DNA of 64,000 nucleotides from Candidatus Omnitrophota bacterium (GCA_013203315.1 JABMQJ010000026.1:41006-105005), one strand, 5' to 3'. Positions 1,392 to 46,700 are shown, counted from the first letter of the stretch. Notes: generated by a model from the letters alone, not told the origin. A program made the numbers and translations.

Positions 1392-1412
1392 TTTTAGGAA
1401 GGCGGTTATTAT

Positions 1413-8209: not shown

Positions 8210-8210
8210 T

Positions 8211-18971: not shown

Positions 18972-19562
18972 ATGAAACATTTCACGGACGAGCAATTGAT
19001 AAAGAAAGCGAAGCGTAAAGATAAGAGCGCTTTTAGCGAGGTCATTGATAGGTATAGCGATAAGATGCTCGGGTATCTCTATCGATACGTGGGTGACTAT
19101 CAGAAAGCCGAAGACCTGACGGTTGAAACATTTTTCAACGCGTATAAAAGGCTGAAAACCTACACGGAAATGGGCAAATTCAGTTCGTGGCTTTACATGA
19201 TAGCGACAAACTGTGCACGGAAAGAGTTACAAAAAAGGGCCCGCTCCAAGGAGGTTTCGCTTGAAAAGCCTTTGGGCGTAGGGGCGAAGGAAGATATAAA
19301 CTTAGGCGACTTGATAGCCGATGAAAAAACACGTCCCGATTACAACGCCAGGCAAACCGAACTTAAAGAGCTGATTTACAGCGCGATATCAAAGCTGGAT
19401 AAAAAGTATAAAGACGTTTTGCTATTTTGCGATGTCGAAGGTTTATCTTATGAAGAGGCAGCCAAGATTTTGAAGTGCAATCCGATAACAATCGGCACCA
19501 GAGTAAGAAGGGCACGAATCATGCTATACAATACACTGCGAAGATATGGTTATGAATTCTAA
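18972..19562 (+). CDS. ECF-type RNA polymerase sigma-70 family factor
   Basis: Region 2 is ...YRYVGDYQKAEDLTVETFFNAYKRL. Region 4 is a helix-turn-helix (DVLLFCDVEGLSYEEAAKILKCNPITIGTRVRRAR). GGAGG lies 8 nt upstream of ATG 18972. The ORF track's start at 18930 is less likely. Confidence 0.75.
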   Translation: MKHFTDEQLIKKAKRKDKSAFSEVIDRYSDKMLGYLYRYVGDYQKAEDLTVETFFNAYKRLKTYTEMGKFSSWLYMIATNCARKELQKRARSKEVSLEKPLGVGAKEDINLGDLIADEKTRPDYNARQTELKELIYSAISKLDKKYKDVLLFCDVEGLSYEEAAKILKCNPITIGTRVRRARIMLYNTLRRYGYEF

Positions 19563-19617: not shown

Positions 19618-19761
19618 GAAATAAAGTGAAATATTCCGGGATTTAGGGGATTATACATAATAGAAGCTTAAAAAAGCTTGGCAAAAATCTACGTGTTTTG
19701 AGTTTCGTATCTACGTCTTTTTTTATGTCCTGAAACTTAGGACATTTAAAAAGGGATAAAT

Positions 19762-19767
19762 AAGGAG
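19762..19767 (+). promoter_or_regulatory. Shine-Dalgarno (AAGGAG) of the giant ORF
   Basis: AAGGAG lies 6 nt upstream of GTG 19774 and 9 nt upstream of ATG 19777. There is an in-frame TAA at 19747-19749. Confidence 0.6.
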
Positions 19768-19773
19768 ATCTAC

Positions 19774-22700: not shown

Positions 22701-25700
22701 TCATGACATAGGATATGCCGGATTGGAAGGCGCTAAGAAACAATTTGGAAAAGATAAAGTCGAAAAAGGTTATCATGCTGACTTAGGTGCGGCTATGGCA
22801 AGGGATGACTTATCCGCTATTTTGCGGGAACTTTTTGGCATGGAAAGAGATGGGTCTCGGGAAGACAAAAGCGCGTTAGACGATTTCATAGATGCGATAT
22901 TGCTGCACGGCGCGGATAAACGAAGTGTAGAAGAAGAAGGTCCTGAAGGTTCCGGCGAGCATAAGCATACACCGGCAAGCGAAACTAATAACCCTCTCCT
23001 CATGCTGGTGAGGTTAGCAGATAATCTGGATGTCTCCAGGGATAGGCTGAGAGGTTGGCAGAAGAATCCGTGGTTTATGAGAATACTTTATCACATGGCG
23101 AACGATCAGGTTCTGCAGGATATTTCAGAAAGAAAGGACCTGACAAAAGACCAACGCGAAAACTTAATCAATGAAAGATTGAAATATCTAAGGGCAGAGG
23201 AGCTTAAAAAGCTGAAAAAAAGAAAAAAACTTGCCCAAAGAGTGCGGGAAAGTGGTGATACGGAAGCCATGGAAGAGTTCTGTAATGAGTTTCAGATTGA
23301 TCCGCAGACAGATCAAGAAATGATAATGCAATTATTGGAACAACTAACTAAGCCAGGCTCTGAACAGGAGTTTAAGAGAATTGAAGAAATGATTGGCAAA
23401 ATGGATAACGAGGCATTCAAGCACTTTATAGGTGCCTTGGCTATCAGGGAACTTATATTGAGCGTAGATGAAGAAGGAAATTTAGCGATAAAAGCCATCG
23501 TTACGGACAGGGCAGACAATCCTATTTGGAGGGAGGCTGCCGAATTCCAGATAAATGGTAAAGGAAGAACCAATAATGCGCTAGAGTCACTTAGTATAAA
23601 CGGAAGAACTGTGAGAGTCCAAATCAGCTATGGAAAAAAGCAGTTGGAACTACCAATGCCAGGTGATCTCGGGAAACCAGTTGGTGCATTGGCCTCAGTT
23701 GCTGCATTGGCCATTGATGTAATGGAAGCGCAGAGCGTACTAGCTGTGCCGGGAGCCGAAGTGCATGTAGAAGACGTTACCCTGCCTGCAGCCACGTCTG
23801 TAGTAGACGTTACCCCGCCTGCAGCTACGTCTGTTGTAGATACAACCCAAATCCAGCCTCAAATCGAGCTGGATGAAGCCAAGAAAGTATCTCCGTATTT
23901 AGCAAGAGTACTCCCCACATTAAGCCCAGAAATATTGAGCCAAAAAACCGGTATAAAAGCCGAGGTAGTAGACCTTGCCGGCACGCTACTTGGCATAAGA
24001 GATTATCTTTTAATGAAAGAAGAAGGCAAAGAATTAGTCATGGCATGGATCCTGGAAGATAACGAGAGAAAACAGAAGATGATGGAAAAAGCCGGAGAAG
24101 ATTATAAAGGAGACGGTTATGATTTAGTCTTGCAGGTAGCTGAAAAGCGTTTTGTAGATGGTAAGAGAGAAAAAGAAAGCGACAGGGCTGCTGCCAGACG
24201 CGTTGCATTAGGAATGGTGGCGCAGATTATAGCATACTACGGGAAGGAAAATATCGCTGCCCCCGGTGTCGAAAAAATAACAGCCAAAGCGCTGCAGGGT
24301 AAAATAAATAATGCCTTTACAAGGAGAGATAGGGCCAGACGCGAACAGCTTCTTGTAGAACACGGCATAGACATAGCGGAAAGTAATGCCCAGCTATTAG
24401 TAACCACAAATACAATCGACTTGGAAGGAAGAATAGGCATATTAGGAAGGTTCGGCGTTACGGTTACCGCAGATCTTCTTTTATGCAGCGAAAAGTTATT
24501 GGAAACCAATATACCTATTATAATTGGGCATGACATAAAACCGGAAGATATAACCGCAGATCACGTTCATAACTTTCAAGATACGTTAAGAACAGAGCGC
24601 GAGGAAGATGTAAGACACATAGCGAGCTTAGGTGCTGACGAAGAAAATGCAGGGGCGCAAGCAACCGCGCGGCACGAGGCCGTTCAAGCAAAAATAGACC
24701 GAGTGGATCGTGAGCGTGAGGCACTTGTGAGGAACTTAATATCTGCGCGTCAAAAAAAGCACAATACGCGCATGAAGGCAGAAGGCCAGAACCCGATCGA
24801 AGGTACATACGAGGATATTGCGTTTCGCAGGGACGCGCTAGGAAAAGAAATTTTCGGCAAACTTTCCTCGCTTAAAGAGGAACTTGCACAGAATATTCCG
24901 GAGGACGATGCAATAACAGCAATAAAGCAAGAACTGGAAGAGCTCAAAACAAGGGTAATAGAACTTGATAAGAGAAGAAGAGAAAGAAAAGGTATTTCGA
25001 GAATACTTAATCTCGTAACCCGAATGATAATAGGAAGGCGTGTCCGTAGGATAGCTCGGCTGGAATTTGAACTAAACGAACGAATTCCGCAAGCCGCGCT
25101 CATGATTCAAAAGATAGATCTTTATGAAGCAGGATTGCTTCAGGCCGAGCCGCAGGATATAGGCATGTTGCGAAATGAAATCGAGAATGCCCTTTCTCGA
25201 AATGACGCCAAAGACTTCAAAAAGCTAGTAAGAGAATATCTGACAAAAACAAGGGTATTAAACGATATAGATAACGAGCTAGACAAATTTGAATCGGATC
25301 GAGAAAATCAGGTTGCCCACGAGGAACGATTCTACATGTATTGCCCGCAGTCTGTAAGGGACTATATAGAGGTAAGGCGCTCTGAGATAGCCGAGCTTAA
25401 GGCCAAGATAGATGCGCTTGACGCAAAAATAGAATCCGGAAGAACCGTGAAAGGATTCAGGAGAATCCTTAGAGGTCGTCGCTTTGGAATTTTGACTTTG
25501 TTAACACGTGTTAGAAAATTATTTCATAAATTGCAGCTCAACAGATTAGAGGCACAGTCAACCCCGGAAGCGATTATTGCCAGGCTTTCCGAGGCTGCAA
25601 GGAGACACCTTGCATTCCAAACCAATGAATGGTCCAGATTCAACGGATTTTTAGGAGGTCTTGCGGATATTAACACGCTTGTCAAGGGAGGTATTCCGGT

Positions 25701-28700
25701 GATAGCAGACATGGCAGTTCGTCTTGTTTCAAGGGAGCGGCAAAAACCCCTTACACCGGAGGAAAGAAAAGAACTTGAAGACAAAATAGATGAAAGAGTA
25801 AGAGAACAATTAGGCATTGAAATCACCGATGACGAAATAAAAATAGATGGGAATGGCAAAATACAAAGCGAAATTGCATTATTTTTCGGAAGAAACCTGA
25901 ATTTAAAACCCGGCGCACAGCAGCCATCATTCCTGAGAGACTTCGTTTTTCTTACCGCTGTTAAATCCGGAAAATTCAGAATAAAAGATAAAGATGGAAA
26001 TGTCAAAGAAGTGAATCTTAGTAAAAGGTATGAAGCGCTTACCGGTGAAGAAAAACAAGCATTCGATAGCGAACTTGCCGAGATATGCCGCGGCGCAGAA
26101 GATGACCTGGTAAAATTAGCCATACACGATTTTCTTATACCATGGGCCGGAGAACGGCAACCCAATATAGTAGCTACGCTCTCTGCAAAAAGTGAAGAAC
26201 TAATGAAGAGCCTCGAGGCGCGCAATGAAGCCATAATCGATCTTTTCGAAAAGAATTTGTTAGTTACAGATAAGGAAATGATAATACAAATGGAAGCGCC
26301 GAGCATACCCTGGAGAGATCTCGGCAGGGTAGCTGCTACCATTGCCGGTATTTCCCTTGTTGGGGGCATCATTGCAGCGACCGGGGGATGTGGTGCATCG
26401 CCAGTACTCAACCAGCCTGCCGTTGAACAAGCAGCGCAGCAAGCTGCGCAGCAAGTTGCAGAAGTACCGCAAGAACCAGCCTTGCCGCCGGCAGAGCCAA
26501 CAAAAGCAACCGTACCTACCCCTGCGAAACAACCGGAAAAGCGTGTTACAAAACCTAAAGCAAAGACACCCAAAGCCGAAGTAGCAGAGGAACCCGAGGT
26601 AGAGAAACCCAAGGTATCGGAAGGATTAGATGCATTAGATGTATTATTGCCACAGGTACCGGGAGAAGGCGAATGGCTAGATAAATTAGTGCCAGAGGTA
26701 GAACCGGGAGCAGCGATACCTAGAGCAAGAGTGCCAGAGATGGTAGAGCTGTCCGTGCGAGACTTCCATGAGAGCCTGTATGGTTTCCCACGGGATCAAG
26801 CCGACGGACTTAAAGACACTCATTTAACACGCGATGATTTGAAGAATATCTTTTCAAGGCTTAGCGGAAGTGTCGGACATAATCAGTCGTGGGAAGGTGC
26901 GCTTAGTCAAACAACAATACATATGAACGGAGTTTTAAGATGGCTTCGTGATAACAACATAAAACCTGAACAAATTCCTATGCTCTGGAGCCGCATTCCG
27001 CGCACAATGCTTACAGGCGACCAAGCGCATACGATAGACCAATTAAGCCCCGGATTTTTGGAAGTATTGGGCCTTGCAATGAGCTTTTACGCAAACGATA
27101 TTGCAAGCCCCGCAAATATTGAGGAACGCGGAGGAAGAGCGCTTTTGGCGCAAAAAAGAAGCGAAATATTACGCGACCTGAAAAATTATATAGCAGGCGG
27201 AAACATTATTGCGAAGCCGGGTTCGCGTGCCGCACGCTTTGAAAATATCCCCGAATCACGCCGAAGGCTTGAACTTGGGTGGAATAAATTTGTGACTAAT
27301 AGCCTTGGATCGATAGATGCCGCAACTATGACTCTTTCCGATTCAAAGGACTTAAGAAGTGAACAGGAAAAGTTATCCCCGGCGCTTGATATTATACTTG
27401 GACGACCGGTGAACCTTAGGAGTAAAGTTGATAGAAACCTACTGCAGACCCTCGCTTCCTTTGCAAAACTTAACGGAATTAAAGCAGAGGACATGACCTT
27501 GCTTATAAAAGCCGGTATGCCATTAGGACAGCTTGTACCACTATTTCATAGTTCGGCTACAATATCAGAACAACAAAGAATCCAAGCCAATATGACCCAA
27601 GAAGAGATCAGCAGAACACATGCCCGCCATAATGCAATAGCGCTTAGCCGAGCTCGCCAAAAACATATAGCAAGGCTAGATAAGGCCAACCAAAGATTCC
27701 AGAGAAGAATGAGTACTCTTGAATCTCAAGGTCTTACAGGCCCACGAACAGAATACGTGCAGAGACAATTAGCAGACTTACAAAGCCAAATAGATGCTCA
27801 GCAAACTCTCTTAGGTTATTGGATAGAAGCAGATAATTCCAAGTATTACTTCGAGAGGGAAATAAAAGAGAGTACAACATCACCTGGGGACATCAGGCAA
27901 GAAATCGATGGAACCATAGCCGCAAGCAACAGCATAATATTGTTAAACGAACATTTAAATAATTTCCTTAGCATAATAAAGGCGACGTTCGAGAATCTCC
28001 GTCCGGGCGAGAGCTTGAGCGATATACTTGCCGAGGGAGATACGGCGCAACTCGCTAGGCTCGGACGTGAAGCTTATGCGGTAAGAGCAAATTTTGCAAC
28101 TATGTACGAGGTCATTTCAAGAGTCGCTGACCAATACGAGAACCCGCTAGCAAGCGCACTTTACTTTGCCTCCCAGAACGGGAAGGCTTTTCCGGGCACA
28201 TATGTTGATGAAAATGGTGCTAGAAAAAAACTGGCTTATTTTGTGGAAAAAGACGGCCAGCGCCCGATCATAAAAGTTATTTATGACAATGAGCCGGAAC
28301 CGCGCAGGACCTATGTAGACTGCGAATTTGATGAAAGAGAATGGCGAAATATAGAGGCGTCGGTAAAAGGTGAACGTGACCCCAACCCTACCAGGGATAT
28401 TAACGATCCAACCAAGCCCGGTAAGCTTCTTGAAAAATTAGGTCCCGCTATGGAAATAGAAGAAGGCATAGAGGGAATTCCCGAACCCGTAATCGGCTTA
28501 CCCGGGGGTATAGGCGACTTGGGCGTGACTGGTGAAGATCTCTTACAGCCCGCGACACAACCCAAAGTGCAAACCGAAGCTGAAAAAGCGGAAGAAGCCC
28601 GTCTGGAAAAGGTGAAGGGAGAGATTGCAACTAACTTTGACCTAGCAAATAAGGCACTGGATGGGGCAACTGAGGCCCTTAACGCGGATAACCTCGAAAA

Positions 28701-31700
28701 AGCGGACGACGAAATAGAAAAAGCAAAGGCTTTATACGATAGACTTGTAAGATATTCCTTCCGGAATGAGCCGGTAAAGCCCGGGGACCTTAAGGCGCTA
28801 AAAAACAGGATATCCGAAGCCGAGACTCAGCGGAAGGAAAGCCGGATATATAAGAGAGTACAAAAGCTTGAAAAAAGGTTATCTAGAATCTCAATAACCA
28901 TAGAAAACATACGTAGAAACGCGAATAAATTTGAAAATGAAACGGACTATAAACGCGCGAAAGATATAATTGACGGCATATTCGCTTCTTTAAAGAAAGA
29001 ATTTTCCACCGGGGAATTGGAGTATAAAAAACAAGAAATAGATGCCTTAAAAGTGGAGTCCCGGCTCGCCGATAGTTTTGCCAGGGCATTTTTATTATTC
29101 AAGAAAGCAAAACAGGATCAAGCAAAATTCGATGCCCAAAGGGAAGAAGCAAAGCGTAAGTACGAGGCGATAAAGGAAAAAATAACCAACGCCCCGCGAC
29201 TTCAGGGACTTCCCCTTGCCCGGGGAATGGTGCACGTATTTCTGCATGGCAACGGCAGCCCCAGCCTCGCGCGATTTTTTAACAGAAACAAACCGAGGCA
29301 CGGAAGATTTGACGAAGGCGATGTTATTGTAAGTGATACACCGGTACCCGATCATCTTAAGGGTAAGAATGTGGAATGGTATCGTTATAAAATAAGTTTC
29401 CTCAGGAAAGAAAAAATTCCCCTTAAGTCCGGCGATCCCAAAGCGACCCATGTTTCGGTAGACGGAAAAGAGTACTCGGTATATGGCCCTGTTTACATGG
29501 TATTGGAAAAGATAGAAAAAGGCAAAAAAACTATAAGGGTAGCGAACGATACAATTGATTTGATGAAGCTTGTAGGCACAGGGTATACACTTAATGATGA
29601 AAATGGAAATCCGCTGTTCTCAGAAGCCGTAGTAAAACTCGCCAAGGACAACGACTACGATGCGGCTGCGATACAATGGAATATAGATTTATCGAGACAG
29701 AGACACGAAGGCATACGCCAGGCGAAAGAGAACTCAGAGGAGCATGTGGTAAGACTGATACTCGATTCCTGGCAGGCCCATGCGGAAAATCTTGAGATTG
29801 AAGAAGCGTGGGCGGAAATGCTTCGCACAATGTCCGAGGGCACAAAGGTTGAACTGGGCATATCAATAGGGGCCTATACAAAGTCGCTTCCATTTGTGTC
29901 GGTGTGGGCCGGTATTACCAGGATCATAGATAAAAGAAGAGATGCTTATGTCAGCCAGGGTTTCTGGAAATATTATGTTAAGATTCAAGAGGTTAAGAAT
30001 AGACAGGTTAAGCGGGTAAGCAGGGCCCTCGCGGACCTGACTGAACTGGGAGAAGTAAGGGCCGAATTGACACGCCTCAAAGGCGATGAAACGAATTATA
30101 AAAATCTCCTGAAGAAAGAAAGGGACAAAAAATCTCAAAGGGCAATAAGGGCCAGGCTGGCTTCTATCGGCGCAGAAATAGCAGGGCTCCAGGCCCGCGA
30201 CAGCGAGTTAAGCGAAGGCGTTCTTACTGAAATGGGCGAAAAGCTTAAGATAGATGAGATAGTAATCGATCCTAATAGACGTCTGAGGAAATGGCAGATT
30301 AACCGGATTCTTGCTCAATATGGGGTAGACGCGGGCACGGTTTATCCTGTTATGCGCGCATACTATCTCAAAAAATGGGCTGAGGCCAAACAAAAAGAAG
30401 CAGAAGCAGGAAAAACACCTGTATATACCTCTAAATCCATCGTAAGCGGTTCTGCCAGCGCCGCCGGTTTTTATGGCGGCATATTCGCGAGCATGGATGC
30501 CAAATTCGTAGATAAGGAACTGACCCCGGCAGTGGCTGATGTAATAAAACTACGGCAGGATGTAAATGCCAATTGGACGGCATACAATTCGCAGCAGAAA
30601 AAGAAAAAACTCGAAGTCATTTCTAAGGCGATAGACGAAGTTATAGATGCCTCGAATAGGAAAATCAAGAATCTGGCAGAGCGCAAAGCCGATGCGGAGA
30701 AGAAATACAAAAAAGGACTTTTAACCTTTGGACAATACGACGAGGCGCTTATAAAACTGAGGGAAGCAGAAAAGGAACACTCCGCTATAGTAACGCAGGG
30801 AAGCGCAATACAATACGATTTATGGATGCTTCATGACGGCCTTGACAGACAGCTGGGAGACGCCGTTAAGCTCAAGAGAGAAAAAGGCGCAATAACCGCA
30901 AGTAAGTTCATGGAAGATGTGCTCAAAACATCCCGCGAGATTGGCGCCGGCAAAATGGCAGATGTAGATGTGCTGGAACATACCCGGCGCTTGAAGGAAG
31001 GGAAGGATAAAGGCGTAGTTACAATTGAAGGCGTTGGTGGCTTTGTAAGCACCGGCTCGGACGGAAAAGGTATTTCCTTGGGCGCGGGGGCATCAACAAC
31101 CCTTAAAATCGATACCTCGCGGGAACAGAAATTAGATATATTGGCAGATACCCTTCTTATATCTGAATTAAGAAAAGAAGCAACGGAAGAAGACGCGGCC
31201 ATTAATGCCTTAAACGCACTCATTAGTTATAGGGGTATAAAGAAACAGACAGAATACGCGACCGCAGGGAAGAAGCATTACGAGGACTATAAAAAAGGCG
31301 CCGGCACACGAGAAGAAAAAGCCGAAGCCGAAGGATATCTGGCTGACGCGGTTCTTAATTTGAGAGGAGCCGAGCGATGGCTGACATCCGCAATGAGAGA
31401 GGCAATCACGTTAAGAGGCGGAGATTTTGCGAATGTTACGGATATAGATGACCCCACTGTATTATCCGGTATTATAGCCGAACTAAAGGTGAATCGTTAT
31501 AAAAGAGAACTTGAGATATTAGACCTGCAGAAGAAAATTATAGAGGCCATGGCCACAATAATAGCCAAAGGAGATTCGTTCTCCCTGGCTTTAGGCCTTG
31601 CCTACGCGGTTCAATCAGATGGTGGTTCCACGCTGCAGACGATCGGATTTAACATACAAATGGAATCGAATATATTCGGTCCGTTCTTACCCCTTATTAT

Positions 31701-34700
31701 CGGTAACCCGGAAAAAATAGATTTAGAACTAGCGGAAAAACTCTACCAGGAAAAGCGAGCCAAAATACAGGCCGAAGCTAAGGCGAGCGATGAAAAAATT
31801 GACAGCCTGGAAGTCCGGGTAACCATAGCTAGGCAAGCTGTCGATAGTGCTAAAAAGGCTCTTACAGAAGAAAAAGAGGCGAAGAAAAAAGCCCTTAGGC
31901 TAGCCGAACTCGAAAAAGCGAAAAGTAACTTACAAAGCGCGCAAACTGATCTCGAACTGGAAGAACTCCAAGCGCAGGCATATAAAGGTGTCCAGCGTGT
32001 GCCGAGAGAGGAAGGGATTTCAGTAAAAGAGGCGGAAAAATTAAGGCTAAGGTTGGCAGAAGCAAAGCGAAAGGCGGATGTCATAGATGAAGAAACTGGA
32101 AGGGTGGAGCCACAAGAGGCAAGGGAAAGAGAAGCTAGGGTCAGCGGTGCTGTTAATTTTAGAATTGTCCTCCTCGACCCAAGGAAGCCGGATACGTCTG
32201 AATATGATATCGAAGCCCTTAGAGAAGAATCCAGAGAAAAAGTCGAAGAAGGATTAAAAAATTATAAAACTCTTAAAGTTCAAGCCGCACGATATGGTGT
32301 AGAGCTGGCGTGGCTGAATTATCTTAGGGCAATAGCGGTAAAACAGTTAAATCAATTCAAAGGCGACCTTCCGGCGTTAAAGCCGTTTGACAATGAAGAG
32401 ACCAGTAGAATGAGGAGATTTACAAAATTTGTATCGGAATTAGATGCCAAAATTGCTAATATTGACGGAAAATTGGAAGAAACGGAAAAACAGATTCCCT
32501 ACGCGGGCGATGCGATTGGCGTGGTATACGTGGGCGACAAGATTGCCATAATAGTAGAAACCAAGCCCAACGGGAAAGAAGCAATAAGAGAGCTGAAGAA
32601 AATAAGTGAAAAAGATCGCGCCGCCGTATTGAAAGAGATAGAAGACCGGGACCCTGAACTGAGGCGGTTGAAAGCCCTTCGCGCACAAGCCCAAAAAATG
32701 CACGAGGCCACAGAGCCCCAACTGGGTTTTCTACCCGTTATTGATTTAAAGGGCATGTCTGGCATACCTATAACAGGCGCCCAGCTTGACCTTACATGGA
32801 CTCTTTTCGATTCCGGGCTTAACGAGGCCAATAGGTTACTGGCGTGGATAAAATTAGTAAGGCAGGACCTATTAATTAAAGTGGAAGAAAACAAAAAGTA
32901 CAACAGTCTTATTTTAGCCCTGGATCAACTTGAGAAGAAGACTTTGCGTTTAAAGAAGGCTGCAACGGCTAGAATGCGCTATCTCGGTTACATGGATGAG
33001 AACGGTAAGTTCGTTCCGGGTTTATTGACAGATGTCATAGAATCGTTGGACAATCAGAATACGAATTTGGATGAAGTTAGAAGAATTTTCCGAGAGTCGC
33101 AGGACGCGGTAAGCGAAAATGCCGAAGCCGCTTTTGAAAGTTTAGCCGCCGTAGAAAATTTTATCGTTTCTTTAGAAGTAATAGGTGTTGATCCCGCAAA
33201 ATATCTTAAAAAGCCAAAAAAATTATCAAAACCGGCCATAGAACCTGCGCAGCCGACGACTACTAGGCCGAGCGTTGCGCCGGCGGTGAGTGAATACAAA
33301 GTTCCCACCCAAAAGGTGCAAGATAAGGACATAAAAGACGAGATAGGGATTCTTATAGAGGCATCCGGCATGAGTGAACGAGCGGCCGTATTTGCGGTAA
33401 TATCTGCTAAACGATTTGTCGAGATGAACCGTAATATAGTTAACGTGCAGGGCCGTGAGCCATGGACGTCTAAATTACACTTTATAGGGATGTCAGAATA
33501 CGCCAGAAAAATAGCACGGAAAATGGCAGAAGATCCGGGCTTCAAAATTCCTGATCACCTCGGCTTCAGAAGCATCTATGATTTATCTACTACAATGGAG
33601 GAATCGGGACAAGTTAACGACCCAAAGACAGGCATTTATCCGGGCCTGTTCAACCTGCTTGGCCTGGCACATTATATGCAATGCTACGAAGATAGATTTG
33701 GTAAAGAGAAAGCCACGGCCCATTTTAATGAGGTTATAGCTAAAATTAAAGGTCCAAGGGATGAAGGATGGGAGATAGGGATACAGAAAAGATTAGCGGA
33801 ACTTGGCCTTGGAAAAACAGAAGAGGAGATGCATGCAGGCAGGGTTGCCCTTTCCGGTATAGCCGGTAGAGCTGTCGGCAGAGACCTTAACGTTCACACG
33901 AACCTTCATGACATGGGTATTGCGGGCAGGTTCTACAATTTCGGCCTTTTGCAACACTTAAATCCGGGGCAACTTGATGCTATGGTAGATGTTATGCGGG
34001 AACTACGGTCGTTCCTTAACAGTATATTCGATAATTATGGGGACATGACGAATGACGAATTATCAAAACAGCAGGGTTCCTACAGGCTGAGATTGAACAG
34101 TGAAAGATTGAAGACGCTTACTCCCGGAACGCCGGAATATAAACATGTTGAGATGCTCGTAGAAAGGGCAAGAAATGCGCTCATAGAAGAATTAGAACTC
34201 GACCGTCTCTTCAGCGCCGCCAGGGCAATATTAGAGCAGAGCGGCAAGGTGCTGAAGAATATGTCGAAGAAGGACATACAGGCAATTCTCAAGACCACGA
34301 TTAGAAGCAAGGCGTGGCGTGACTCCCTGCAAGATAATATAATTCCACGAATGAAAGGTGAAGACGGCAAGTTCCTAAGCGATTACGAAAATCCTTTATT
34401 TGACGCACTTAACTTTTCCGATAGTCGCGGAAAAGCCTACCCGGGCAAGGACGCAAAAGGAAAACGCGTAACTTATTTTGTGGAAAGGATGAAAATCGAT
34501 GGAAAAGGAAAATTACAGCCGGTTGTAAAAATTATCTACGCTGGCGAGCAAGAACCGCACAAAATCTATATAGGCCACTTTGACAAAGAAGCATGGTTAA
34601 AGGGAGACGCGTTGCCTATTCTGGACTTGGAAGGGAACAAGCCAACAAAGCCCGTCATAGAATTAGGTCCCGCTATAGAAGTAGAAAAAGGCATAGAGGC

Positions 34701-37700
34701 GGTTCCCGAACCCGAACCCGGAATCGGCCCACGCGGGGCGATAGGTCTCTTGGGCGAGGCTGACGAAGTCGAGAAAAAGTTGCTAAGTGAAACCGGAAGA
34801 CGCGAGTATGTGCCGTTGTCCGCAGCCGGAATGAAGGGTCTCCTGGCGGTATACCAGCGTGACGAAAAAACGGGCGTACGCGGTATGCGGATAGGAACCG
34901 TAAAAAATCTAAAGCTAAATGAAAAAGGAGAAGTCATAGGTGGGGATATTGTTGAGAAGAAATCGCTAAGTGAAACCGGAATACGCGAGTATGTGCCCCT
35001 GTCCATAGAAGGTATGGAGGGCTTCCTGGCAGTATACCAACATGACAAAGAAACGGGTGTACGCGGCGAACGAATAGGAACTGTAAAAAATCCAAAGATA
35101 AATGAAAAAGGAGAAGTCATAGGCGGAGATATTGTTGATAGAAGAAGAACCGCTACAATTGGCTCACGCGAATACGTAATTGCAAGAGTTGAAGATGGAA
35201 ATGATATACCGGAAAGCCTAGCATACCTTCCTGGAGACATGAAGGATGTAGTGCTTGTGTATTCCGGATATGACGAAAACCAGCCGATAGGATACGCTGA
35301 AAGCGGTAAGATCAGCTTCAACGAAGACGGAACAGCCACGTTAAGCGATGATGTCATAATTATGAGGACAGCCCGGGTGCCGTTTACAGGTGAACTTGGG
35401 GCAGTAGGCCACCTTTATGCAAATGGAGAATATTACAATCTTCGTAAGGGCGAAGTTCATGGTTTTGACGGAAAATATACTGCGAAATTATACAAAATCA
35501 AAGAATTCGAAAAAGAACGTGTAGAAATAAGATTTACAAGTACCTCGAAACATCCACGTCATGATTCGGCCAGAGAATCTATCGTATTGGTCCAGGACAT
35601 GGAAACAGGCCTACCTATCCGTGAAGAAAATGTGCCACTGGTGATACGCGATGGAAAACAAGCTTATGTTGTTTACGGGACAATACACTTTTTCAATTGC
35701 AATGAAGAAGGAAGGCCGCAGTACGTGGAACTACGATTATCAGACGGCAAATTCCATGATGGCGTGTCAACGCGCAAGGCTAAAACAATACGATCAATGG
35801 AATGCGAATACAGAGAAGACGGAACGCGTGTCAATACCCGATGGACATACGGAAAAGGAAAAGAGTGGTGGAAGAACAAAATCTTCCAGCGTGGAGTAGA
35901 AGCCGTTGTGGCCCCGGCAACTCGCATGAAAGGCGTATCGGTTGTCACGCTTGCTCAAGTAAGGTGGAAAAATGCATGGTGGAAAACCCAGGCAAGTTTT
36001 GGAAGTGGGATAATAAAGTTAACAGAGCCATTATCCCAAACCGACAGAGGGTGGGAGGCATGGCAGTCAGAGTTTGACGTTGAAATGCAGGATGCCGGAC
36101 ATTCCACCGCACCGATGGGAAGTGCTCAACAAGCTGCCCCCCATGACGATAATTGGAAAGATATGACTAAATTACCGCCGCAACCCCGCACCGCAATAAC
36201 TCCGAATAGTATTGCAGGAGAGGTCTACGAGATAAATAAGGTGATCGAAAAGCACCATCCCAATCTCATGAAAAGGCTTAATCAACATTTGTCGCAAGAA
36301 AATTGGAACGAATTCTGGGCTGATATATGCGAGATACACCGATTAAACGTATGGCCTGCCAGGGTCCACCTTGAAGGCGTTGCGCACTATCTCGATCTTC
36401 TTTTAACTGAAATCGAAGAAGAAGGAGGAGACGTAACTCTTCTTTTCAGTGACCTCGAATTGGCAACGATTACATTTAAGGATAGAAAGCTTCGGGGAGT
36501 ACTTGCAGCAGGAACAAGAGGAACTGACCCAGCGTTAGGCGAGGGATTGGATATTTTGATAAATGTTTTAAAAATTGCAGATAACCTAAAAAGCCGCGAA
36601 GATTCAATACTTTATATGAGTGAGTGGGAGATGAAGGCGCTTGGCGCCGAAACCAAAGAAGGAATAGTCACAGCAAGGCTTCGCATTTTCCTAAAATTTC
36701 TTACAGACTATAAAAACGGAAAAATGACCAAGAGAGATTTTGAATACGAACTAAAAATCGTGAACAACACAATTCACGAGTACGCAGTCCGGCATAATAG
36801 AGATGAACAACGCCAGGGAATAAGAGCTATCAAACCACTGCTGAAAAAACTTTATCCGGGACAGGAAAGATTGGATGAAGAGATCAACGTGTATGAAGCA
36901 TCCGCGAATATGCTCTACTGGTTTATGGTAATGCTGGACCTCTCGCCGAAAAAAGTCGAACAACTTATGCCGCTACTTTCCAAGTTAAAAGCACGCCTCA
37001 ATGAGTCATTGTTGGAATATGATGAATCTTTTGTGGAAATATTATTATACATAGCGTCTTTCAGGATATCCGGACCGAAGACTTACGAAGCTGACCGCCT
37101 CTTCCGGGCCAAGTTACAAGCACGCCTCAATGAGTCATTGTTGAAATATGATGAATCTTATATGCCAACATTATTAAACATAGCGTCTTTCAGGATATCC
37201 GGACGCCACACAACTAATAGAGGTATCGCGAGGGCTTACGAAATTGACCGCCTCTTCTGGGCGTTGATAGCACTGGTAGAGAATACCACTGACACGGAAA
37301 TCGCAGACCTTACCACGGAAGAAATCGAAGATATGATGAATAAAACAATCAACAATGATAGATGGATAGAATACTTTAATATGGCAATCGATGTTCAGAT
37401 AAAAAATGACACGATGCCCGATGTGTTTAAGTCAGCTTATTATGCAAGTGCGTCTCAGAGGCCACCCGCAAAGATAGCACGAATAAGAGAAGATGTACCT
37501 ACAAAAAGTGACACACACTATCTGAGCATAACCTATATACCAGGCTCTGAAATAAAAGAATCCAACGTAAAAGCCTATACCGTATCCGAAGATGCAGATG
37601 GGAAGCAGGAGATGATGAAGTTTATTATAAAGAAGGATGCAGAGGGCCACCCGATAGTAGAGCTTTTTAAGGGTGGCGAAAGCGATCCCAGCCAGGTTTG

Positions 37701-40700
37701 GGAAGGCGTATTCGATGTGAATGAATGGCTTGTAGGATCTGAGCTGGAAGAATGCATTACAATAGACGGGAAACCCGGCAAGCTTTTAGAGACATTAGAA
37801 GAGGCAGAGGTCATCGAAGAACTAGGAGAAGAGGGTGTGCCGGCGCTTCCCGCTCCAGAAGTTCCTGGACCCGCAGTCGGCGAACGCGGGCCAATAGGTG
37901 CCTTGGGCGCAACTAAACCGGCAGAAAAAGTATTGGCAACAACGCCGGATGGAACAAAAAAGTTCGTCCAGCGTCCGGATGGCAGTGTATGGCTAGTGGC
38001 GAAAGGAGACCCGAATCATCTTGAGATGTCTAGAGGAAAGACGCAAGCATGGGCGGACAGGAAAAATGCGCCACCCGAACCTCGCAGTGATATAAACCCG
38101 GAAACGATAAGCGAGGAAGTAAGCGGAAAAACGGAATCTATCGCTGCAACGCTTGAAAAATATTACCCGGAAGAAATGAAAGCGCTTTCCGAAGTTATTA
38201 CGCCGAAACAGTGGAACGAAATGTGGGCAGAAGTTTGCGAAGTTCATAGGCTAACCCCTAGAGGGGCCAAGGAGCATTTAGAGCGCGTAAATTATTGGTT
38301 GAATGAAATTCTTAAATGGGAAGAAAATAATGGTGTAAAAATTGACATTCCGGAGGATATGTACTCGCTTCTTTACGCCATTCGGCCGCTAAAAAATGAG
38401 GTATGGCCCATAGAGAAGGCGCTTCCCGGGTTACTGCGAAAATTGACCTATGTCGATTTTATGGCATCATTGGAAAAGCATAGGTTGTTATTTGATGCCC
38501 CGGTTCTGAAGCTAGCCGACGCAACAGTCAGGAAAGATCTTCGGGAGGTTTTCGTTCGTTTCTTCAAGATACTAAAGGACCATCAGAAAGGGAAGCATGA
38601 CAAGAGTGCCATTTTAAGATTTAGAAGGGAAATAGATGATAGAAACGCAGTGATTGTTGATCTCGCATTACGGCATAATACCGGGGAGCAGCTAACTGGT
38701 GAGACCGCTGCGCTTGAAAAAATCTCAAAACTTTTCCCGGAGTGGAAACTAAAGTATGGAGTGAGCCAGAAGGGTTTTCACGACTCTCATATATTGTTTT
38801 CATTTTACATGTTTATGGTAACCCAGGACCTTTCATCCGGTAAGATCGATGAGCTTATGCCTTTATTGCAGGCGCTGAAACCTTTTCTTAATGATTCCTT
38901 CGGCGAATACAAAGACATGGAATTAGGTAAGTTGCTAAAAACGCCGCGTGGCTTCGATCTTGACGGGGTTATACAAGTGTGGAAAACTCTGGGTGAGGAC
39001 TTAAAGAAGCTTTGGGGCGGCGAGGTGCATAAGCAAATGCTTAGAGGCCTTGAACTTGACCGTCTCTTTGAGGCAGCACGGCTAATAGTAGAATATCACA
39101 GCGGGGGAAAAAGGATAAAGGATTTATCAGGAAAAGAGATACAAGAGATTCTAAAACAGACGCTCGGGAAGAAAGGCTACACGGGATTTCTTGCCAGGGT
39201 AATTAATATTCAAAAGAAGAACGGCCTTACCCCGGACATGCATAAATCAATTGATTGCGCGAATACACGCAAGACACCGCCACAAGCCGAAACGGTGACA
39301 AGAAAAGACCTCCCCGGAAAACTACCGGGAGGAAAATATTACCTGAGCACGACCTACGAAAGCGGCTACAGGACCCCGGAGGAATATACCTTATATAAAG
39401 ATGCGGAAGGAGAGACAAAGATAATAACATTTTCTCTAAGAAAAGACGGAACTGTTAGGATAATATACGGCAATGATGAGGCGGCTTCGCAAGTTTGGAA
39501 GGGCAAATTTAATAAGAATGCGTGGTTACAAGGAAAGGCTTTAAAAGATTGCATTACAATAGACGGCGAAAAAGGCCAGCTTTTAGAGGAATTAGGTAAG
39601 CCAGAAGATGTGGAAAAAGGTATAAAACTAGAAGAGCCTGCGGTGCCCACGCCCACGCCTGCGCCCGGAATAAGTGAACAGGTACTTGGACGTGCAACTC
39701 AAGGCGCAAAGAGCGCAGTTGCAGGCACCGGTTCACCTTTGACGAATTTTGTGATGATCGTAGGTATGAGTGCGATAGGCGTTGTAACCGACTCTCAACA
39801 AGCACAAGAGCCCCCAGCGCAAGTGGCGCAAGTGGCACCGGCGAAGTCGGCGCAACCGGCGAAAAAGGCGGCGACGCCGCCGGCGCAAGCGAAAAAGCCG
39901 ACAACGCAGAAGGCACAAACACAACCCGCAGCGAAACTGAAACCTGCTGAAAAAGCTAATCTACTCATGAACTACAGTGGGCCAGATGGAAAAGATTCAT
40001 ACGGCCGTAATGCCGGAGAAAATTTCTGGGGACATGTTGGCATAAGCGATCCTATACAGGCAGAAAAAACAAGAAAAGCTTTTCGACACATGAAAAAGCT
40101 GGGCATCGACTCCGTGAGAATGGGATTAGTAGCCGATGGCCGCTCACTAATGGACGAAAATGGAAAGGTTGACCCCCAAAAACTTAATAAGTTCATGGAG
40201 GACGTAGAGGCTTTACTTAAAATTGCAGAGGAACAAGAAATCCAAATAGAAATAGAATTTTCCCTTATCGACCATCTTATAGCGTATAAGGGCAGAATAG
40301 ATAACGGCGTCCCAATTTTTGGTAGGGATGAAGTAATAAAAGACGCTGCAGGATTTGTTAAAGACTTCCTGACACCATTCCTTCAGAAATTCGGGAAACA
40401 TAAGGCGATAAAAGGAATCGACATTATAAACGAACCGGAATGGATCTGGATTAATACCCCCGTTACAAAGGACAAGGTAAAACAATTTATAAGAATATGT
40501 TCGAAAGCCATAAGGAAATGGGCTCCGGGTAAAACCATAACAGTCGGTGTTAATACCGAGTATACCGGAGAAATGGCCGCATTAGTTCGCGAAGGCGTGC
40601 TGGACTACGTAGCCATTCACCACTATGAGGATAGGTTCAGAAGGAAAAAAGCCGACGGCACATTCGAGAAAGATAATTTCGCGACATTAGAACGCTTCGT

Positions 40701-43700
40701 AAAGGCACTTAGCGTGCCTGAGGCACAAAGAGTGGCATGGGCAATCGAAGAATCCCAGATAAGAGAAGAAGATATCCCTCGGGTTCTGGAAATCATTAAT
40801 AAGTATAACGGAAAGATAATCGGAATTTGGGGATGGAATGATAGTGACAAGAGAAGCCTTAACCCGGCAACGCGCGGTCCCTTACTTAACAAACTGCAAC
40901 AGCTTAGAAAAGAACTACCTGTGCCGCCTACTGTGACACCGCCCATGCATACCGTAGAAATGACGAAGGCGGTTAGCGAATTAGACCCCGGAAAAGCGCC
41001 GAACGAACCTGTTTCCCCTCTAACAGCACCCAAGATTGTGCGCCCGTCCAAAAAAGACATTAACCGGGTCCGCGTGCGCAAGAAAAAAGACGAAGACGGA
41101 AAAATTAGCGAATCCTATAGATATGAAAAACGAACGAGAGATCACGAAGACCCCAGAAAGCGCAAACACAGCAAAATTCTTGATATCGGCGTTGGAGAAG
41201 TAGAAAGAACGGAAATTCCCAGAGCAGGCGTCGACCTTATTTATATAATACAGTTTGACCCTTTAACAACAGAAATAGTACGCATGGAGTTATGGCGCGG
41301 GAAGTTAAAGGTAGAAGACAAAGGGAAGGTAATAAGCTACTTACCTGAAGGAGACCTTGAGCCCATGCTCGTAGAGTACGCGGAATTCGAATACAATCCT
41401 GACAAGACAGTAACGATGCGCCTCGCAAGGCGCGATGTTCTGGGAGGCGAAGAAAACTACATAGAGGAATACGTATTTAAAAAAGTAAAATTCGAGGATG
41501 GCAAAATAAACATAATGGTTTCGAAGACTGTCTATGACAAAAGCCTCGTAGAAAAAGCTACGGTAATTACGCAGATTGACAGGAATGAAAAAACCGGCGA
41601 AATAACAGAAAGGGAATGGATACAGTGGCAGGGCCAAGAACTGCAGAAGTCATCGATGACTGTCTACGCCTCTCACATAGATAAAACGGGCTTCTTGGTA
41701 TGGGAAAGGCAAAGACGCAGAGACTTTGGCACCGGTGCGTGGTTAGAGACATTACGCAAAAAGGTTAAAGGGCAGAAAATAGAAATTGAGAAAGGTAAAA
41801 ATAAAAAGGGCGCGTATTATGATGGCAAGGGAGGAAAAAGCCGCATTTACTATGCAGATGGCGGTAGGTGGGTTAGCATGGAAGACGGCGTTTCCGCTGC
41901 GGCCGAAATTAAGAAAGGCCAGAAGAGAGATAAGCCGTTCGACCCTATAAAAATCGGTTATACCGAAGCCATAGATATAGAAGGCAAAAAACATGTATTA
42001 TATGAAGCCGACACCGAGATAGAGAACAACGCAAAGTTTGACCACAAAAATAATACACTTACATTACCTGAGGAGATTACCGTTGATGGCAAAGACTTTA
42101 AAATCCCCGATGCCGCGCGAACTTACAAACTCCCTGCTAAACTACCTGGCGATAGGGCGATATATAAATTCCATGTAAAGAGGGAATACGACAGCGAGAA
42201 GAATAAAGTGTTAACTACCCAAGTAGAGTGGGTAGTAAGGGATGAGGCGGAAAAGCTGATCTACAAGGTTACAAAGAATTTGATAACGGGCGAGACAGAA
42301 GTTTATGAACTTCATCCCGAGATGAAGATGGAAATAACCGAATTGGAACTTGAAGCAAAACCGGGCGAACATCATGACCAGACACATAAAGATGTTTCGG
42401 AAGGGACATTTTACGACGAAAAGGGTAGAGAAAAGGGAAAAGTATATCACAGAATGGTTTTTGACCCCAGGTACAGGGATAAAGACAAATGGCGTTTCCT
42501 GCAGGAAAGAGGAAAAATAGTCGAAGAGAAGGTGCGTGATGTCGAGAACAACAGGGAAATCACCGTGCTTTATAGCATAACAGAAACGATAGAGTTCAAA
42601 GAAGATGGTTCGCAGGTCGTGAGAAAGGTAAAAGTATCCGTAGATGAAAATTATAAACCCGATGGCAGGGTTCGAGAGGAGCTCATTGTAAAAAAGGATA
42701 AATATGGCAGGATCAAACAGGTTGATGGGGAACCGGATAAATTTGGCATACGCGACGGGCTTACTACTCAGGGTGTTAAGGATGTCGGAAAAAAGACAGA
42801 ATCCCGCTTTACCCCGCAAACGTATAAATTTGTGCCGGTTACGAAACCGGGGCAGGAGTTGCCGGGGTTAATTACGGATAATAAGGGTGTGCAAAAGGAA
42901 TATGTGCTCGCGACTACAGGACGCGATTCTAAAGGTAAATTAGTTCTAAATTTCAAAAAAACCGATAAACGCTTCGGTTACACCCAAGTTGTGGTGCCCG
43001 AAGGCGCAAGATGGGTTACAGAGACTAAGGAAGATGTAATAAGGGATGAAAAAACAGGGAAAGAGATTACAAAGAAACAAGTGGTATTTGGCCTCTACGA
43101 CGCCCATGGGAAACCTTTATATCAGGATATAGCTACTAAATACGGTGATAACGGAATAGTCCACCAGGTTTTGGTTTATAACCCCACTGATAGCACGATG
43201 GCAGAATACGCCACCTACAGAAAAAATTGGCAGGATAAAGAAACACTCATGCTGAAAAAAGTTTCACAACTCCTGCGCTATCGCAACTCCGAACTGATCG
43301 ATCAGTGGTTACTATTATACGAAGAATCATATCTAAAAGGATTTGTAAGGGAATACACATATGATATGCAAAGGGCCCTTAGCGGCGCTTTTGGCGGCAT
43401 GCAACCCCTCACGAGTAAAAAATGGAAACTAAACAAAGACGGTTCGCGCGGCGAATTGACAGAGCACATGGCATTTCTTTACTATGGGCCGACAGGGCAG
43501 CGCCTGATTGTAGATATGCGTGACAGGAGAGACGACAACGGAAACCTCATAGATCACGAAACGCCGTTGGCAGCGGGTCAGGCAGTGACGGGCCTTGTTA
43601 CCCCGTTTGCAATAGGGGAAGAATTCGAAACAGAAGAGTGGAATACAAAGATTGTAGAGCGTCCGGACGGAACGCTATGGATTGACACTTCACAAGGCGA

Positions 43701-46700
43701 CCTTCTCACTTACAGGGTGTCCGCAAACGACGAGTTTTATCTCACGGTTCACTTAACAAGAAACCCTGAAACAGGAGAATATACGGTACGAAACGTATTT
43801 AAAGGTAAACCTGTTTCCGAATTCTACAGCGTTTATGGAAATAGAAGAATAAAGGAATATACAGAGCTTGACCGAAGGTGCGTAACTGTAAACTCCGAAA
43901 CAGGCAGATGCGAAGTGTCTGAAGAAACAGGCGTGGTAATTCTCACGAATCCGGAAACTGGTAAAGCACTGGATACCGAAAATCCGAAGGACATAAGATT
44001 GCTCGAAAAAAACATGTTCTTAAGCGATTCGGCAAATCCCGATTTCTCTTACACCATACCTTTAAAAGGCCCTGATTTCGAAAATGGATATTTCTACCTG
44101 AATAAGAAACTAAAAGGAAAAAGCATACCGCTTCTAAGATTAAGACTACGACGCGGCAAAACATTTGATGACTTACTTCGAAACGCACAGACCTCGGTCT
44201 CTGATAAAGCAGACGCCGAGTTGACTACAATAGATCCGAGAGATGCGGTGTTAGATGCCGTTTACGCTTCCTCTGAAGGCGTAACATATCGTGGTACAGG
44301 ACTTACTGTTGTATTTTCAATCATGAATATCGGAAAAGCCATCGGAGAAGGCCAGGAAATAAACATGGTTCCGATTCTGAACGAAAAAACAGGTGAAATC
44401 GATGAAGCGCGCGGCACGAGATTTGTCGTGAGGAAAGGCTCCGAAAAGATATTAGATCTGGATACTAATCTCGATAAAGTACCCCCTTCGATGCGTAAGA
44501 TTAAAACCATTGGCGGCACGCCTGCTTCGAAATTTACGGGTACTATTAAATGCCGGGTAGAGGAGCAGGTCCATTGGAAAAAAGTGTCGGTAACACCCGA
44601 GAACCGGGAATCTCTATCTGAAGAAATAGGAGAACCGGGTAAGTTAGGCCTACCAGGCGCAGAAGGGCCGATCGGTGCAAAAGAAATAACACCTCAGCCG
44701 GGAATGAAACTGACAGATAAAGATACAGATATCATCGTGAAAAAGTATTTTGATAAAGATGACAACTTCCTAAGGAATAAAACAGCTTTCGGAATAGGTA
44801 CAAACAAAGCAGCTAAGGATCTCGTTTTGGGAGCGCTCGGAAATTTAGAAAATTCCGACCCAGTATTTAATAAAAATGCAGGAAGCGATATATTAGATCT
44901 TCTTTACACAATCGCAAGGAAAAATAACTTAAATCAAGAAGAGTTACGACGTCTCATCGATGAGAAACTGATACCTTTAACCGATCTCGCCGTAACAGGA
45001 TTTAAGAATTTAGATATTCAAAGCATCGAAGGACTAACAAAGGATGATTACATAAACTTGAGTACTAACGAGAACGCAATGGCCCTCGGTGTACTTATTT
45101 ATTGGGCAAGCAATCGCGATGAGAAGTTTAATTTTGACGAATTCTACGATGCATTTAATGAACTGTGCACATATCCAGAAGGGGACAAAGACAAGCAGGG
45201 CTTGAAAGACGCGCTACTATCATATTTCGATACAAGACTTAACTTGGCAGCAGCGGAGAACAAGGTCAAAGTCGACGAATTGTCAGAGGCTAAAAGATTT
45301 GGCATCTTCGTGGATGTCATGTCATCTTTTGCTAATCAAAAGGTTGCATTAGAAGAAGGACGTTTGTCTGGGGAAAGGTTTATAGAAGGGTTGGGTTTAG
45401 ACGAACTTGGACTGGAACCGGGAGAAACACTTCCGCCGCGCATTATGAAATTATTCATTGAAGCAGAAGAAAAAAGGCTTCAAGGCGTACCCTATGCTGA
45501 GGTGCAGGAGGAATTAGAAGAAAAGCTAAGCCCGGGTATCGGGACTCCGCTATTAGACGGTTTAAAGACAATTTGGAGCTTTGTTCCATATGTAATGGGT
45601 CTTATGAGTGCTTTAATAGCAGCATTAATTGCAATTATTATTAGGAGACGTCTCCCACCGAGATTTAGGCCGGGTTCGTTAATGTCGCAGCTTAGGCCGC
45701 GCGCGTTACTGAGTCTAGGACGCTCGTTACTAAGTCTATCATTCAGGGGACTACGTCGTGCCGGTAAATGGATAGGGCTTCCCTTGGTTCTGGTACTCTT
45801 AGTAGCAGGCGAATCATTCGGCGCCCCCGTTGGTGCGGATCAAGTTTTAACTCTTGTCGATGGCGGTCCAAGTTTTTTTTCAAGCCTTTGGGCCGCTGTT
45901 CCAAGTCTAATCTCATGGTGGGGTGTTTTTTATGCCTATTGCGCATTTACTATAGGTAGAGGGTTATATAGGGCTATTATTTCAGATAGAAGTTATGTAG
46001 ATCGAGGCACTCGCCACTTTGTAAGGCCTGCGACAGCTAGCAGAGAGTCTCTAACACTAGGTTCTCTTCACCAGTCGATTTCTGACATTGACGCAACGGG
46101 TATGACAAAAGTAGAATTCCTGGCAGCAATAGAAGATGCCATGAGTGATCAAGACTTTAATGATGAATTCAACCGTATTTTTGATAGAGAAACCGCAGAT
46201 ATATTGCAAGGTGAAGGTATTCTTGAAAATATAAATAACAATGATGGCGTGGGAGCGAAACAAACCTTGCTTAATGAAGTCATGTGGAGAGAGGTAGGGA
46301 CTTCTATAAGCCACATGCAAGGAGCTATGTGGGATATACACAGAACCCTCGAGCCTTCTAGAACCGGGACTACTGGCAAGAATAGGTATGTTCCTGTATA
46401 TAGATTTTCAATCTCTACGTTTTTAGCATTTCTTGCAGGCAGCGGTCTTTTGCTTGCGAATTTTTTGAAAGCAGGCGCCACAGGTTGGTCCATGGGTTAC
46501 GGCCCGGGCATGTGGATAGCAGGAGGTCTCCTACTTCTTGTTGCCGCTATAAACGGATATAGGTTCATATGGGATGTAGTCATGCGCATACTTGACGGGA
46601 TTCCTCGTATTGGTGCTTTCGCAAGGCGCCGTCGGTTAGCGCTTGAAGTAATGGAGAATGAGTTAAGCGCTTTGAGGGAGTACTACAACCAGCTCAGTAC

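Follow-up and report, generated by a model that had tools for sequence, protein, structure and literature searches.

We analysed a stretch of 64,000 nucleotides (nt) from a Candidatus Omnitrophota bacterium (GCA_013203315.1 JABMQJ010000026.1:41006-105005), which is referred to in its whole length as the window. It contains a giant gene whose protein carries several copies of one module, and the subject of this study is the junction at the end of these modules, where an acidic and proline-rich tail leads, in three of the copies, into a short run of glycine-X-Y (G-X-Y) triplets.

The giant gene and its repeated module

The giant gene lies in an open frame on the + strand (19750..63999) that comprises 14,750 codons without a stop. 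Its likely start is the ATG at 19777, which is preceded by AAGGAG as a ribosome-binding site. According to hydropathy, the protein has a transmembrane (TM) anchor at its N-terminus (amino acids (aa) 65-83), followed by a region at aa ~84-8612 that is free of TM segments, save one weak hydrophobic segment at 2191-2209, and by TM clusters at aa 8613-10969 and again after 14300. All junction copies fall within the TM-free region, and the C-terminal part beyond the TM clusters is rich in enzymes. Overall, the protein is a mosaic of domains including HD, GH5, GT2-like, deaminase, GDPD, HAD, NTP_transferase, FBP aldolase II (class II) and HEAT. The features on which the analysis rests are listed below, J1 to J5 denoting the junction sites in their order along the gene.

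19777..63999, + strand: giant open reading frame (ORF) of more than 14,740 aa, continuing beyond the window on its 3' side; recognised by its open frame and ribosome-binding site
26503..28545, + strand: cassette A, aa ~2252-2932, ~680 aa; lacking in the nearest orthologue of the giant gene; ends on the right with the J1 tail
28174..28536, + strand: J1, aa 2809-2929, beta subdomain plus tail, found with the junction profile hidden Markov model (HMM)
28426-28539, + strand: J1 tail, LLEKLGPAMEIEEGIEGIPEPVIGLPGGIGDLGVTGED, with a five-triplet G-X-Y run at 28495-28539
33244..34812, + strand: module B, aa 4499-5021, an incomplete and diverged copy of the entire module
34423-34776, + strand: J2, belonging to module B; tail at 34654-34761, with the four-triplet run GPRGAIGLLGEA at 34726-34761
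36112..37974, + strand: module C, aa 5455-6075, a full copy
37564-37929, + strand: J3, belonging to module C; tail at 37783-37914, with the four-triplet run GERGPIGALGAT at 37879-37914
37975..39753, + strand: module D, aa 6076-6668, a full copy in tandem right behind module C
39370-39702, + strand: J4, belonging to module D; tail at 39580-39699, a PTPTP-type linker with no G-X-Y run
44629..44682, + strand: J5, aa 8294-8311, an independent six-triplet run, GEPGKLGLPGAEGPIGAK, outside the junction family

An earlier note on this DNA had described five paralogous junctions. The peptides that it quoted are present, and the four G-X-Y runs are found exactly at 28495-28539, 34726-34761, 37879-37914 and 44629-44682. 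Comparison of the translated ORF with itself by chunked self-BLASTP and phmmer yielded true off-diagonal similarity, including matches between aa 2796-2925 and 4879-5002 (E 1e-22, 43% identity) and between aa 5647-6000 and 6271-6599 (E 3.5e-38). Four of the five junctions are paralogous, since the junction profile HMM recovered exactly four copies, at aa 2809-2929, 4892-5009, 5939-6060 and 6541-6651. The fifth site (44.39-44.69 kb, aa 8214-8311) is not a member of the family: it gave no junction-HMM match even at E<=100 and no self-similarity match with chunked BLASTP or phmmer, and its G-X-Y run is written with codons that differ from those of the junction family runs. The G-X-Y run that had also been ascribed to the fourth copy (39.45-39.67 kb) is absent; the sequence there reads GISEQVLGRAT.

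Each true junction is made up of the last ~120 aa of a module. This module measures about 500-620 aa, and three to four copies of it are found in the first, TM-free half of the giant protein. Modules C and D, which follow each other head to tail, derive from a duplication of ~600 aa (1.8 kb); their alignment covers 555 residues, of which 34% are identical. Module B is a third copy that has diverged more than these two. Cassette A belongs to the module family only through its last ~110-140 aa, and hhalign aligned it with a probability of 97.6 over the last 104 columns only. It had been proposed that the gene grew through duplicated modules of 1.8, 3 and 6 kb. This holds for the 1.8 kb tandem of C and D, but the values of 3 and 6 kb are spacings between junctions, and the sequence between the junctions showed no detectable paralogy beyond the copies described here in self-BLASTP and phmmer. 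That the modules arose through old duplication is partly shown.

The module comprises an all-helical body of ~430 aa, a small antiparallel-beta subdomain with the pattern ...KAY.v.kDa.Gk.k..tf...kD....piv.i..g.....s.v..G.Fd...W...G, and a tail that is predicted to be intrinsically disordered. The tail begins with an acidic stretch (LLE.LG.A.E.E.GIE), continues with a Pro-rich stretch (VPEPEP or PTPTP) and closes, in three copies, with (I/V)G-x-x-G-x-I-G-x-L-G. Module C was modelled as a monomer with AlphaFold2 from a 14-sequence alignment, giving a mean predicted local distance difference test score (pLDDT) of 68. In this model, residues 21-446 are helical, the beta subdomain spans residues ~449-561 with a pLDDT of mostly 80-90 in its core and ~65 near its end, and the tail at residues 565-621, comprising the acidic and PEP stretch and the G-X-Y run, has a pLDDT of about 30. 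The beta core adopted the same fold when it was modelled by itself. The module has no Pfam match and no sequence match in the PDB, and Foldseek against the PDB found no significant fold match, all matches being generic with E>=0.24.

The module family is rare. An exhaustive HMMER search with a profile of modules B, C and D identified 16 proteins among 1.84 billion representatives. The outside proteins, numbered P0001-P0016, match at E<=8e-5 and several of them carry 2-4 modules; modules B, C and D of the window score 717-1026 bits against the same profile. The helical body is characterized by the conserved motifs W.EIWAD.CEVHRL, LAD.LQS, F.V.QD.SP and LELDRLF, and the beta subdomain can be discerned in P0006, P0002 (twice), P0012, P0010 and P0003. 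None of the 16 homologues has a G-X-Y run of at least four triplets at the end of the module, nor is the acidic/PEP/G-X-Y tail conserved in them. In P0001 the module is followed by a Pro/Ala linker, and in P0002 and P0003 by TM-like stretches. In P0006 a stop codon occurs at the module end, after ...GLPDLPKPPA, and is followed by an ORF that opens with a TM segment. The module end is a genuine domain boundary in every one of these homologues, and the tail is specific to this giant gene. Accordingly, the idea of a conserved junction element forming an undescribed domain was correct in that no Pfam, PDB or fold match exists, but what the homologues keep is the beta subdomain, without the acidic segment or the G-X-Y triplets.

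With regard to relationships within the family, motifs and a neighbour-joining tree distinguish two subtypes, one comprising A and B with P0010 and P0012, the other C and D with P0006, P0002 and P0003. All four local copies have the tail despite belonging to two subtypes. No homologue was obtained from a word-indexed search with the four-junction alignment, and no match was obtained from scans of GTDB genomes with modules C and D and with the UvrD protein encoded upstream, or from a metagenome scan with the module alignment. The conserved codon motif of the G-X-Y run was also used as a DNA pattern in a metagenome scan; the 11 matches, all in unrelated marine sequences and out of frame, were rejected.

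An orthologue of the giant gene is found on the ENA contigs L013 and L014, each of which holds ~2900 aa of it and is syntenic with the window (PolX-M48-UvrD-sigma-giant). Within its first 1715 aa, the orthologue is 82% identical to the window protein. Collinearity extends to window aa ~2251, and the alignment picks up again at window aa 2933, so that ~680 aa (window 26503-28545) are missing from the orthologue. The right breakpoint lies directly behind ...GVTGEDLL, the end of the J1 tail; on the left, the break falls within a Pro-rich linker of ordinary kind. From this alignment, it is partly shown that the tail would mark the edge of a cassette subject to gain or loss.

Codons and G-X-Y runs of the tails

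Across J1-J3, third positions are invariant at 13 of 77 sites in the body and at 18 of 40 sites in the tail (Fisher p = 0.0018). Between J1 and J2, identity at third positions amounts to 80% in the tail and 49% in the body (p = 0.001). Where a residue is conserved three-way, its codon is identical in 2/10 cases in the body (1.98 expected) and in 8/12 cases in the tail (1.6 expected, P = 7e-6). The J3-J4 and J2-J4 comparisons, which involve the copy without G-X-Y triplets, revealed no synonymous excess. In addition, the J1 and J2 tails are linked by an 84-nt DNA repeat of 76% identity. RNA structure was considered as a cause of the synonymous conservation and rejected, as the tail alignment folds weakly (-8.4 kcal/mol) and shows no covariation, and Rfam gave no match to it or anywhere else in the window. 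Judged from these alignments, the excess synonymous-site identity among the J1-J3 tails suggests short-tract gene conversion or recombination. Gene conversion among the three tails with G-X-Y runs, to which the excess is confined, would be the simplest reading.

The earlier note had asked whether the G-X-Y runs exceed chance expectation, and they do: the protein contains six runs of at least four triplets, vs 0.32 expected after global shuffling and 0.49 after local shuffling in 60-aa stretches, and none of 2000 shuffles gave six. These are nevertheless not six independent events. The J1-J3 runs are copies of a single ancestral tail, whereas the runs at aa 1560 and 13947 look like chance runs inside folded domains, the latter sitting within the FBP-aldolase II domain. 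Conservation of the runs in orthologues was a further point of the earlier note: the run at aa 1560 is no longer Gly-periodic in the orthologue, which reads KRVGILADFGVP at this position, and the J1 run is absent from it together with the whole cassette.

The composition of the runs differs from that of collagen. The J1-J3 runs have one Pro each and hydrophobic Ile/Leu at Y positions; the J5 run, with six triplets and three Pro, is more collagen-like. The term 'collagen-like' is thus justified as a resemblance and nothing beyond it, given that the runs have 4-6 triplets, are proline-poor, are predicted to be disordered by AlphaFold2 and have no Pfam Collagen match. The Pfam Collagen model (PF01391) has a length of 20 triplets. 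It did not match at E<=0.01 over the whole protein, nor at E<=1 for the segments with J1 and J5. The surroundings of J5 (620 aa) have no homologue in a word-indexed protein search and no Pfam match.

What follows the tail varies between the copies. J1 is followed by a putative coiled coil, J2 by a 61-aa beta repeat, J3 by the next module, and J4 by a PAQ-rich linker and a GH5 domain. The coiled-coil character of the first of these segments, a long, charged and heptad-like helical stretch within 10 residues of J1, was read by eye. The repeat directly behind the J2 tail is a 183-nt (61-aa) tandem repeat (window 34768-35133) with two copies that are 83% nt-identical and a degenerate third. Its pattern, EKK.LSETG.REYVPLS..GM.G.LAVYQ.D..TGVRG.RIGTVKN.K.NEKGEVIGGDIV, has no Pfam match. 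Behind the J4 tail, aa ~6652-6720 (window 39700-39900) include a 16-residue hydrophobic stretch, LTNFVMIVGMSAIGVV, and then a long Pro/Ala/Gln/Lys low-complexity linker that extends up to the GH5 domain; the TM-like stretches of P0002 and P0003 occupy the position equivalent to LTNFVMIVGMSAIGVV.

Two further repeats were observed in the giant gene. Inside module C, a duplication of 96 nt (36980-37075 vs 37109-37204, 92% identity, 129 nt spacing) makes RLNESLL.YDES....LL.IASFRISG appear twice in the protein; it is far younger than the module duplications. A 50-nt repeat at 58517-58566 and 60320-60369, with 88% identity, encodes EPAVAMP(L/P)TP..YA at aa 12923 and 13524. These sites precede the NTP_transferase and FBP aldolase II domains, respectively, and the flanking protein is not paralogous. 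As a second case of a short linker sequence present at more than one site, the 50-nt repeat is a hint that the sharing of linkers may be more widespread in the giant gene.

Interpretation of the junction tail

On balance, the junction tail is probably a flexible inter-module linker at a cassette boundary that evolves in concert, and not a collagen domain. Such a tail would keep the folded module apart from what follows, acting as an extended and flexible spacer or hinge. Its 4-5 Gly-X-Y triplets could add glycine-rich, polyproline-II-like flexibility without forming a collagen triple helix, and short-tract gene conversion or recombination may keep the tail alike in copies 1-3. As a protein feature, the G-X-Y 'mini-collagen' is most likely just a flexible spacer and of modest importance alone.

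Several observations weigh against this interpretation. Inside the G-X-Y run, the Gly/Ile/Leu codons are identical in all three copies (5/6), whereas the X/Y codons vary at their first two positions and often share the third base, in what is a small sample of 13 codons. This pattern is odd for a simple recent conversion, and nucleotide-level selection, or diversifying selection on X/Y, could be at work instead. Furthermore, G-x-x-G-x-I-G-x-L-G is stricter than a pure spacer would need, and a genuine triple-helix segment would likewise be expected to receive a low score in a monomer AlphaFold2 run. Finally, the comparison between relatives covers one orthologue and one junction, J1.

The same codon data could be read in terms of DNA rather than protein. 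The tails would then be recombination 'seams', that is, DNA-level homology patches for the insertion, deletion, duplication and swapping of cassettes, in which the nucleotide sequence and not the peptide is maintained. This is an unlikely explanation, although it accommodates a number of findings: the excess synonymous identity occurs only in the J1-J3 tails, the 84-nt repeat connects J1 and J2, the cassette indel relative to the orthologue stops exactly at the J1 tail, the tail is common to two module subtypes whose relatives elsewhere are without it, and the unrelated 50-nt repeat (88% identity, 58517 and 60320) with its linker-like EPAVAMP.TP..YA lies between non-paralogous enzyme regions. 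However, RecA-type recombination would work poorly with patches that measure 50-130 nt and are 76-88% identical, no tail-like sequence is present in the ordinary Pro-rich linker where the J1 cassette has its left end, a single indel was observed, and gene conversion after duplication yields the same codon signal without any seam function. It is just as doubtful that Omnitrophota giant genes in general grow or vary by cassette exchange at dedicated linker seams of this kind, consisting of the acidic/PEP/G-X-Y tail and perhaps of EPAVAMP.TP..YA. Were it true, bacteria would have an intron-free counterpart of exon shuffling in these seams, and the Gly-X-Y periodicity could stem from what the seam requires in nucleotide sequence or structure. 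A role of the peptide itself as a recognition or processing site is quite unlikely. A protease could cut the polyprotein into modules at the tail, or a partner could dock on LG.A.E.E.GIE..PEP..IG..G.IG.LG, and this would fit a motif that is stricter than a passive spacer requires and a tail that is predicted to be disordered and hence accessible. The polypeptide of P0006 ends at the equivalent position, which suggests that a free module end is viable, and 3.6 kb upstream there is an M48 peptidase gene, which the orthologue has in the syntenic position. Nevertheless, the motif is not conserved in the homologues, half of it is missing in J4, and it contains no known self-cleavage or sorting motif. 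PEP-CTERM signals are C-terminal and consist of PEP, then a hydrophobic helix of ~20 residues and an Arg-rich cluster. They were rejected here, as the sites are all internal, with Arg, Glu and Asp in place of a hydrophobic helix after PEP, and without an Arg cluster. Sortase-type and self-cleavage motifs were likewise rejected, on position and composition.

A real collagen helix at the runs is unlikely because the runs are short, those of J1-J3 have one Pro each, no Collagen profile matches, and J4 and the homologues are without a run. In its most explicit form, with genuine mini-collagen triple helices that hold three giant chains or modules in register and are nucleated by neighbouring oligomerising segments, this explanation is very unlikely. 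It could invoke the excess of runs of at least four triplets over chance, the strict Gly periodicity in J1-J3, the six triplets and three Pro of J5, and the heptad-like charged helical stretch within 10 residues of J1, which was judged a coiled coil by eye. It is opposed by the length of 4-6 triplets, which characterised bacterial collagens exceed by far while also depending on a trimerisation domain, as in Scl2 (PMC4066190), by the single Pro per run and the Ile/Leu at Y in J1-J3, by the missing Pfam Collagen match, by the absence of the run from J4 and all homologues, and by the fact that the J1 run is dispensable in the orthologue. The opposite view, that the runs arose by chance in a Gly-containing low-complexity linker and have no significance, is barely credible. 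Two of the six runs do look random (aa 1560, unconserved in the orthologue, and aa 13947, within the aldolase fold), but six runs were observed vs ~0.3-0.5 expected, a number reached in 0/2000 shuffles, and three paralogues with synonymous-site saturation in their bodies have kept the same G-x-x-G-x-I-G-x-L-G register and codons.

The giant protein resembles others that have been described in this phylum. Giant, membrane-anchored, multi-enzyme Omnitrophota proteins have been reported as 'Archaeovorin'-type (West-Roberts et al. 2023, bioRxiv 10.1101/2023.11.21.568195) and as a 'multi-enzyme metabolic cluster' class (Nielsen & Lui 2026, bioRxiv 10.64898/2026.06.07.730766). Like these, the window protein is very long (>14.7 kaa) and has an N-terminal TM anchor, internal TM clusters, many enzyme domains and HEAT repeats. 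For such giants, internal repeats of domains are described as the rule, and their nucleotide sequences as old (bioRxiv 10.64898/2026.06.07.730766). In contrast to the repeats in their Pfam-based catalogues, the repeated unit of the window has no Pfam family and would be invisible there. Type II/IV secretion or pilus genes flank 13/14 giants (Nielsen & Lui, bioRxiv 10.64898/2026.06.07.730766); in the 19.7 kb upstream of the window gene, which is the flank covered by the window, no type II/IV secretion or pilus genes are present. Collagen-like runs or linkers are unmentioned in the main text of both papers (bioRxiv 10.1101/2023.11.21.568195 and 10.64898/2026.06.07.730766).

Among bacterial collagen-like proteins, Scl2 contains (Gly-Xaa-Yaa)79 plus a V domain, which is a trimerisation domain (PMC4066190). 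As in Scl1/Scl2, the runs of the window have an uninterrupted Gly at every third residue and an occasional Pro at X, and they adjoin acidic or Pro-rich sequence in a protein that is probably surface-exposed. Unlike Scl2 with its 79 triplets, they comprise 5, 4, 4 and 6 triplets, with a low imino-acid content and Ile/Leu at Y. They further differ from Scl1/Scl2 in being without a recognised trimerisation domain, a PF01391 match or conservation in homologues, and the adjacent beta subdomain is without a fold match. Modular bacterial enzymes, such as cellulases, have Pro/Thr- or Pro/Glu-rich interdomain linkers. The tails of the window are similar in that they are predicted to be disordered, are Pro-rich and acidic (VPEPEP, PAVPTPTPAP) and lie between folded modules, and the J4 tail leads via the PAQ-rich linker to the GH5 domain. 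They differ from cellulase-type linkers in having the specific motif LG.A.E.E.GIE ... IG..G.IG.LG and in the synonymous-site conservation among copies.

The present case bears on how bacterial genes grow to tens of thousands of codons. Repeats in Omnitrophota giants have been covered by published surveys only by way of Pfam domains. To these, the case adds a repeated module family that is invisible to Pfam, a cassette of ~680 aa that differs between two close relatives, and a codon-level sign of concerted evolution of a module-end linker. Should further genomes show this pattern, the recombination events that build giant genes would best be sought at module-end linkers.

Neighbouring genes and further observations

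Upstream of the giant gene, the window contains a lipopolysaccharide-core cluster (KdtA, LpxK, LpxL and several GT9 heptosyltransferases) and genes for PolX, an M48 peptidase and UvrD. The UvrD gene lies 1 kb upstream of the giant gene. Its best matches show 95%, 88%, 77% identity and lower, and all named matches are from Candidatus Omnitrophota or Omnitrophica.

A gene for an extracytoplasmic function (ECF)-type sigma-70 factor is located directly upstream of the giant gene (window 18930-19562) and is syntenic in the orthologue (L013 5567-6157). This sigma factor is a candidate for a dedicated regulator of the giant gene. The relatives L015-L020, whose UvrD is 77% identical, have no sigma and giant gene locus downstream of UvrD, and in L018 integrases and a transposase are found where this locus would be. 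The locus looks variable or possibly mobile. L015-L020 were unusable as outgroups because the locus is absent from them.

Further downstream in the giant gene, its C-terminal enzyme region contains another internal duplication (window ~54508-56268, aa 11587-12173). Here, phmmer detected similarity between aa 11757-11895 and aa 12027-12173 (E 2e-11), and a weak HD_5 match is close by. At the other end of the window, the N-terminal half of the ORF at 4176-6119 matches lipid A acyltransferase (LpxL-type) and its C-terminal half the ELM1/'mitochondrial fission' family, a pairing that is unusual, if this is really one ORF.

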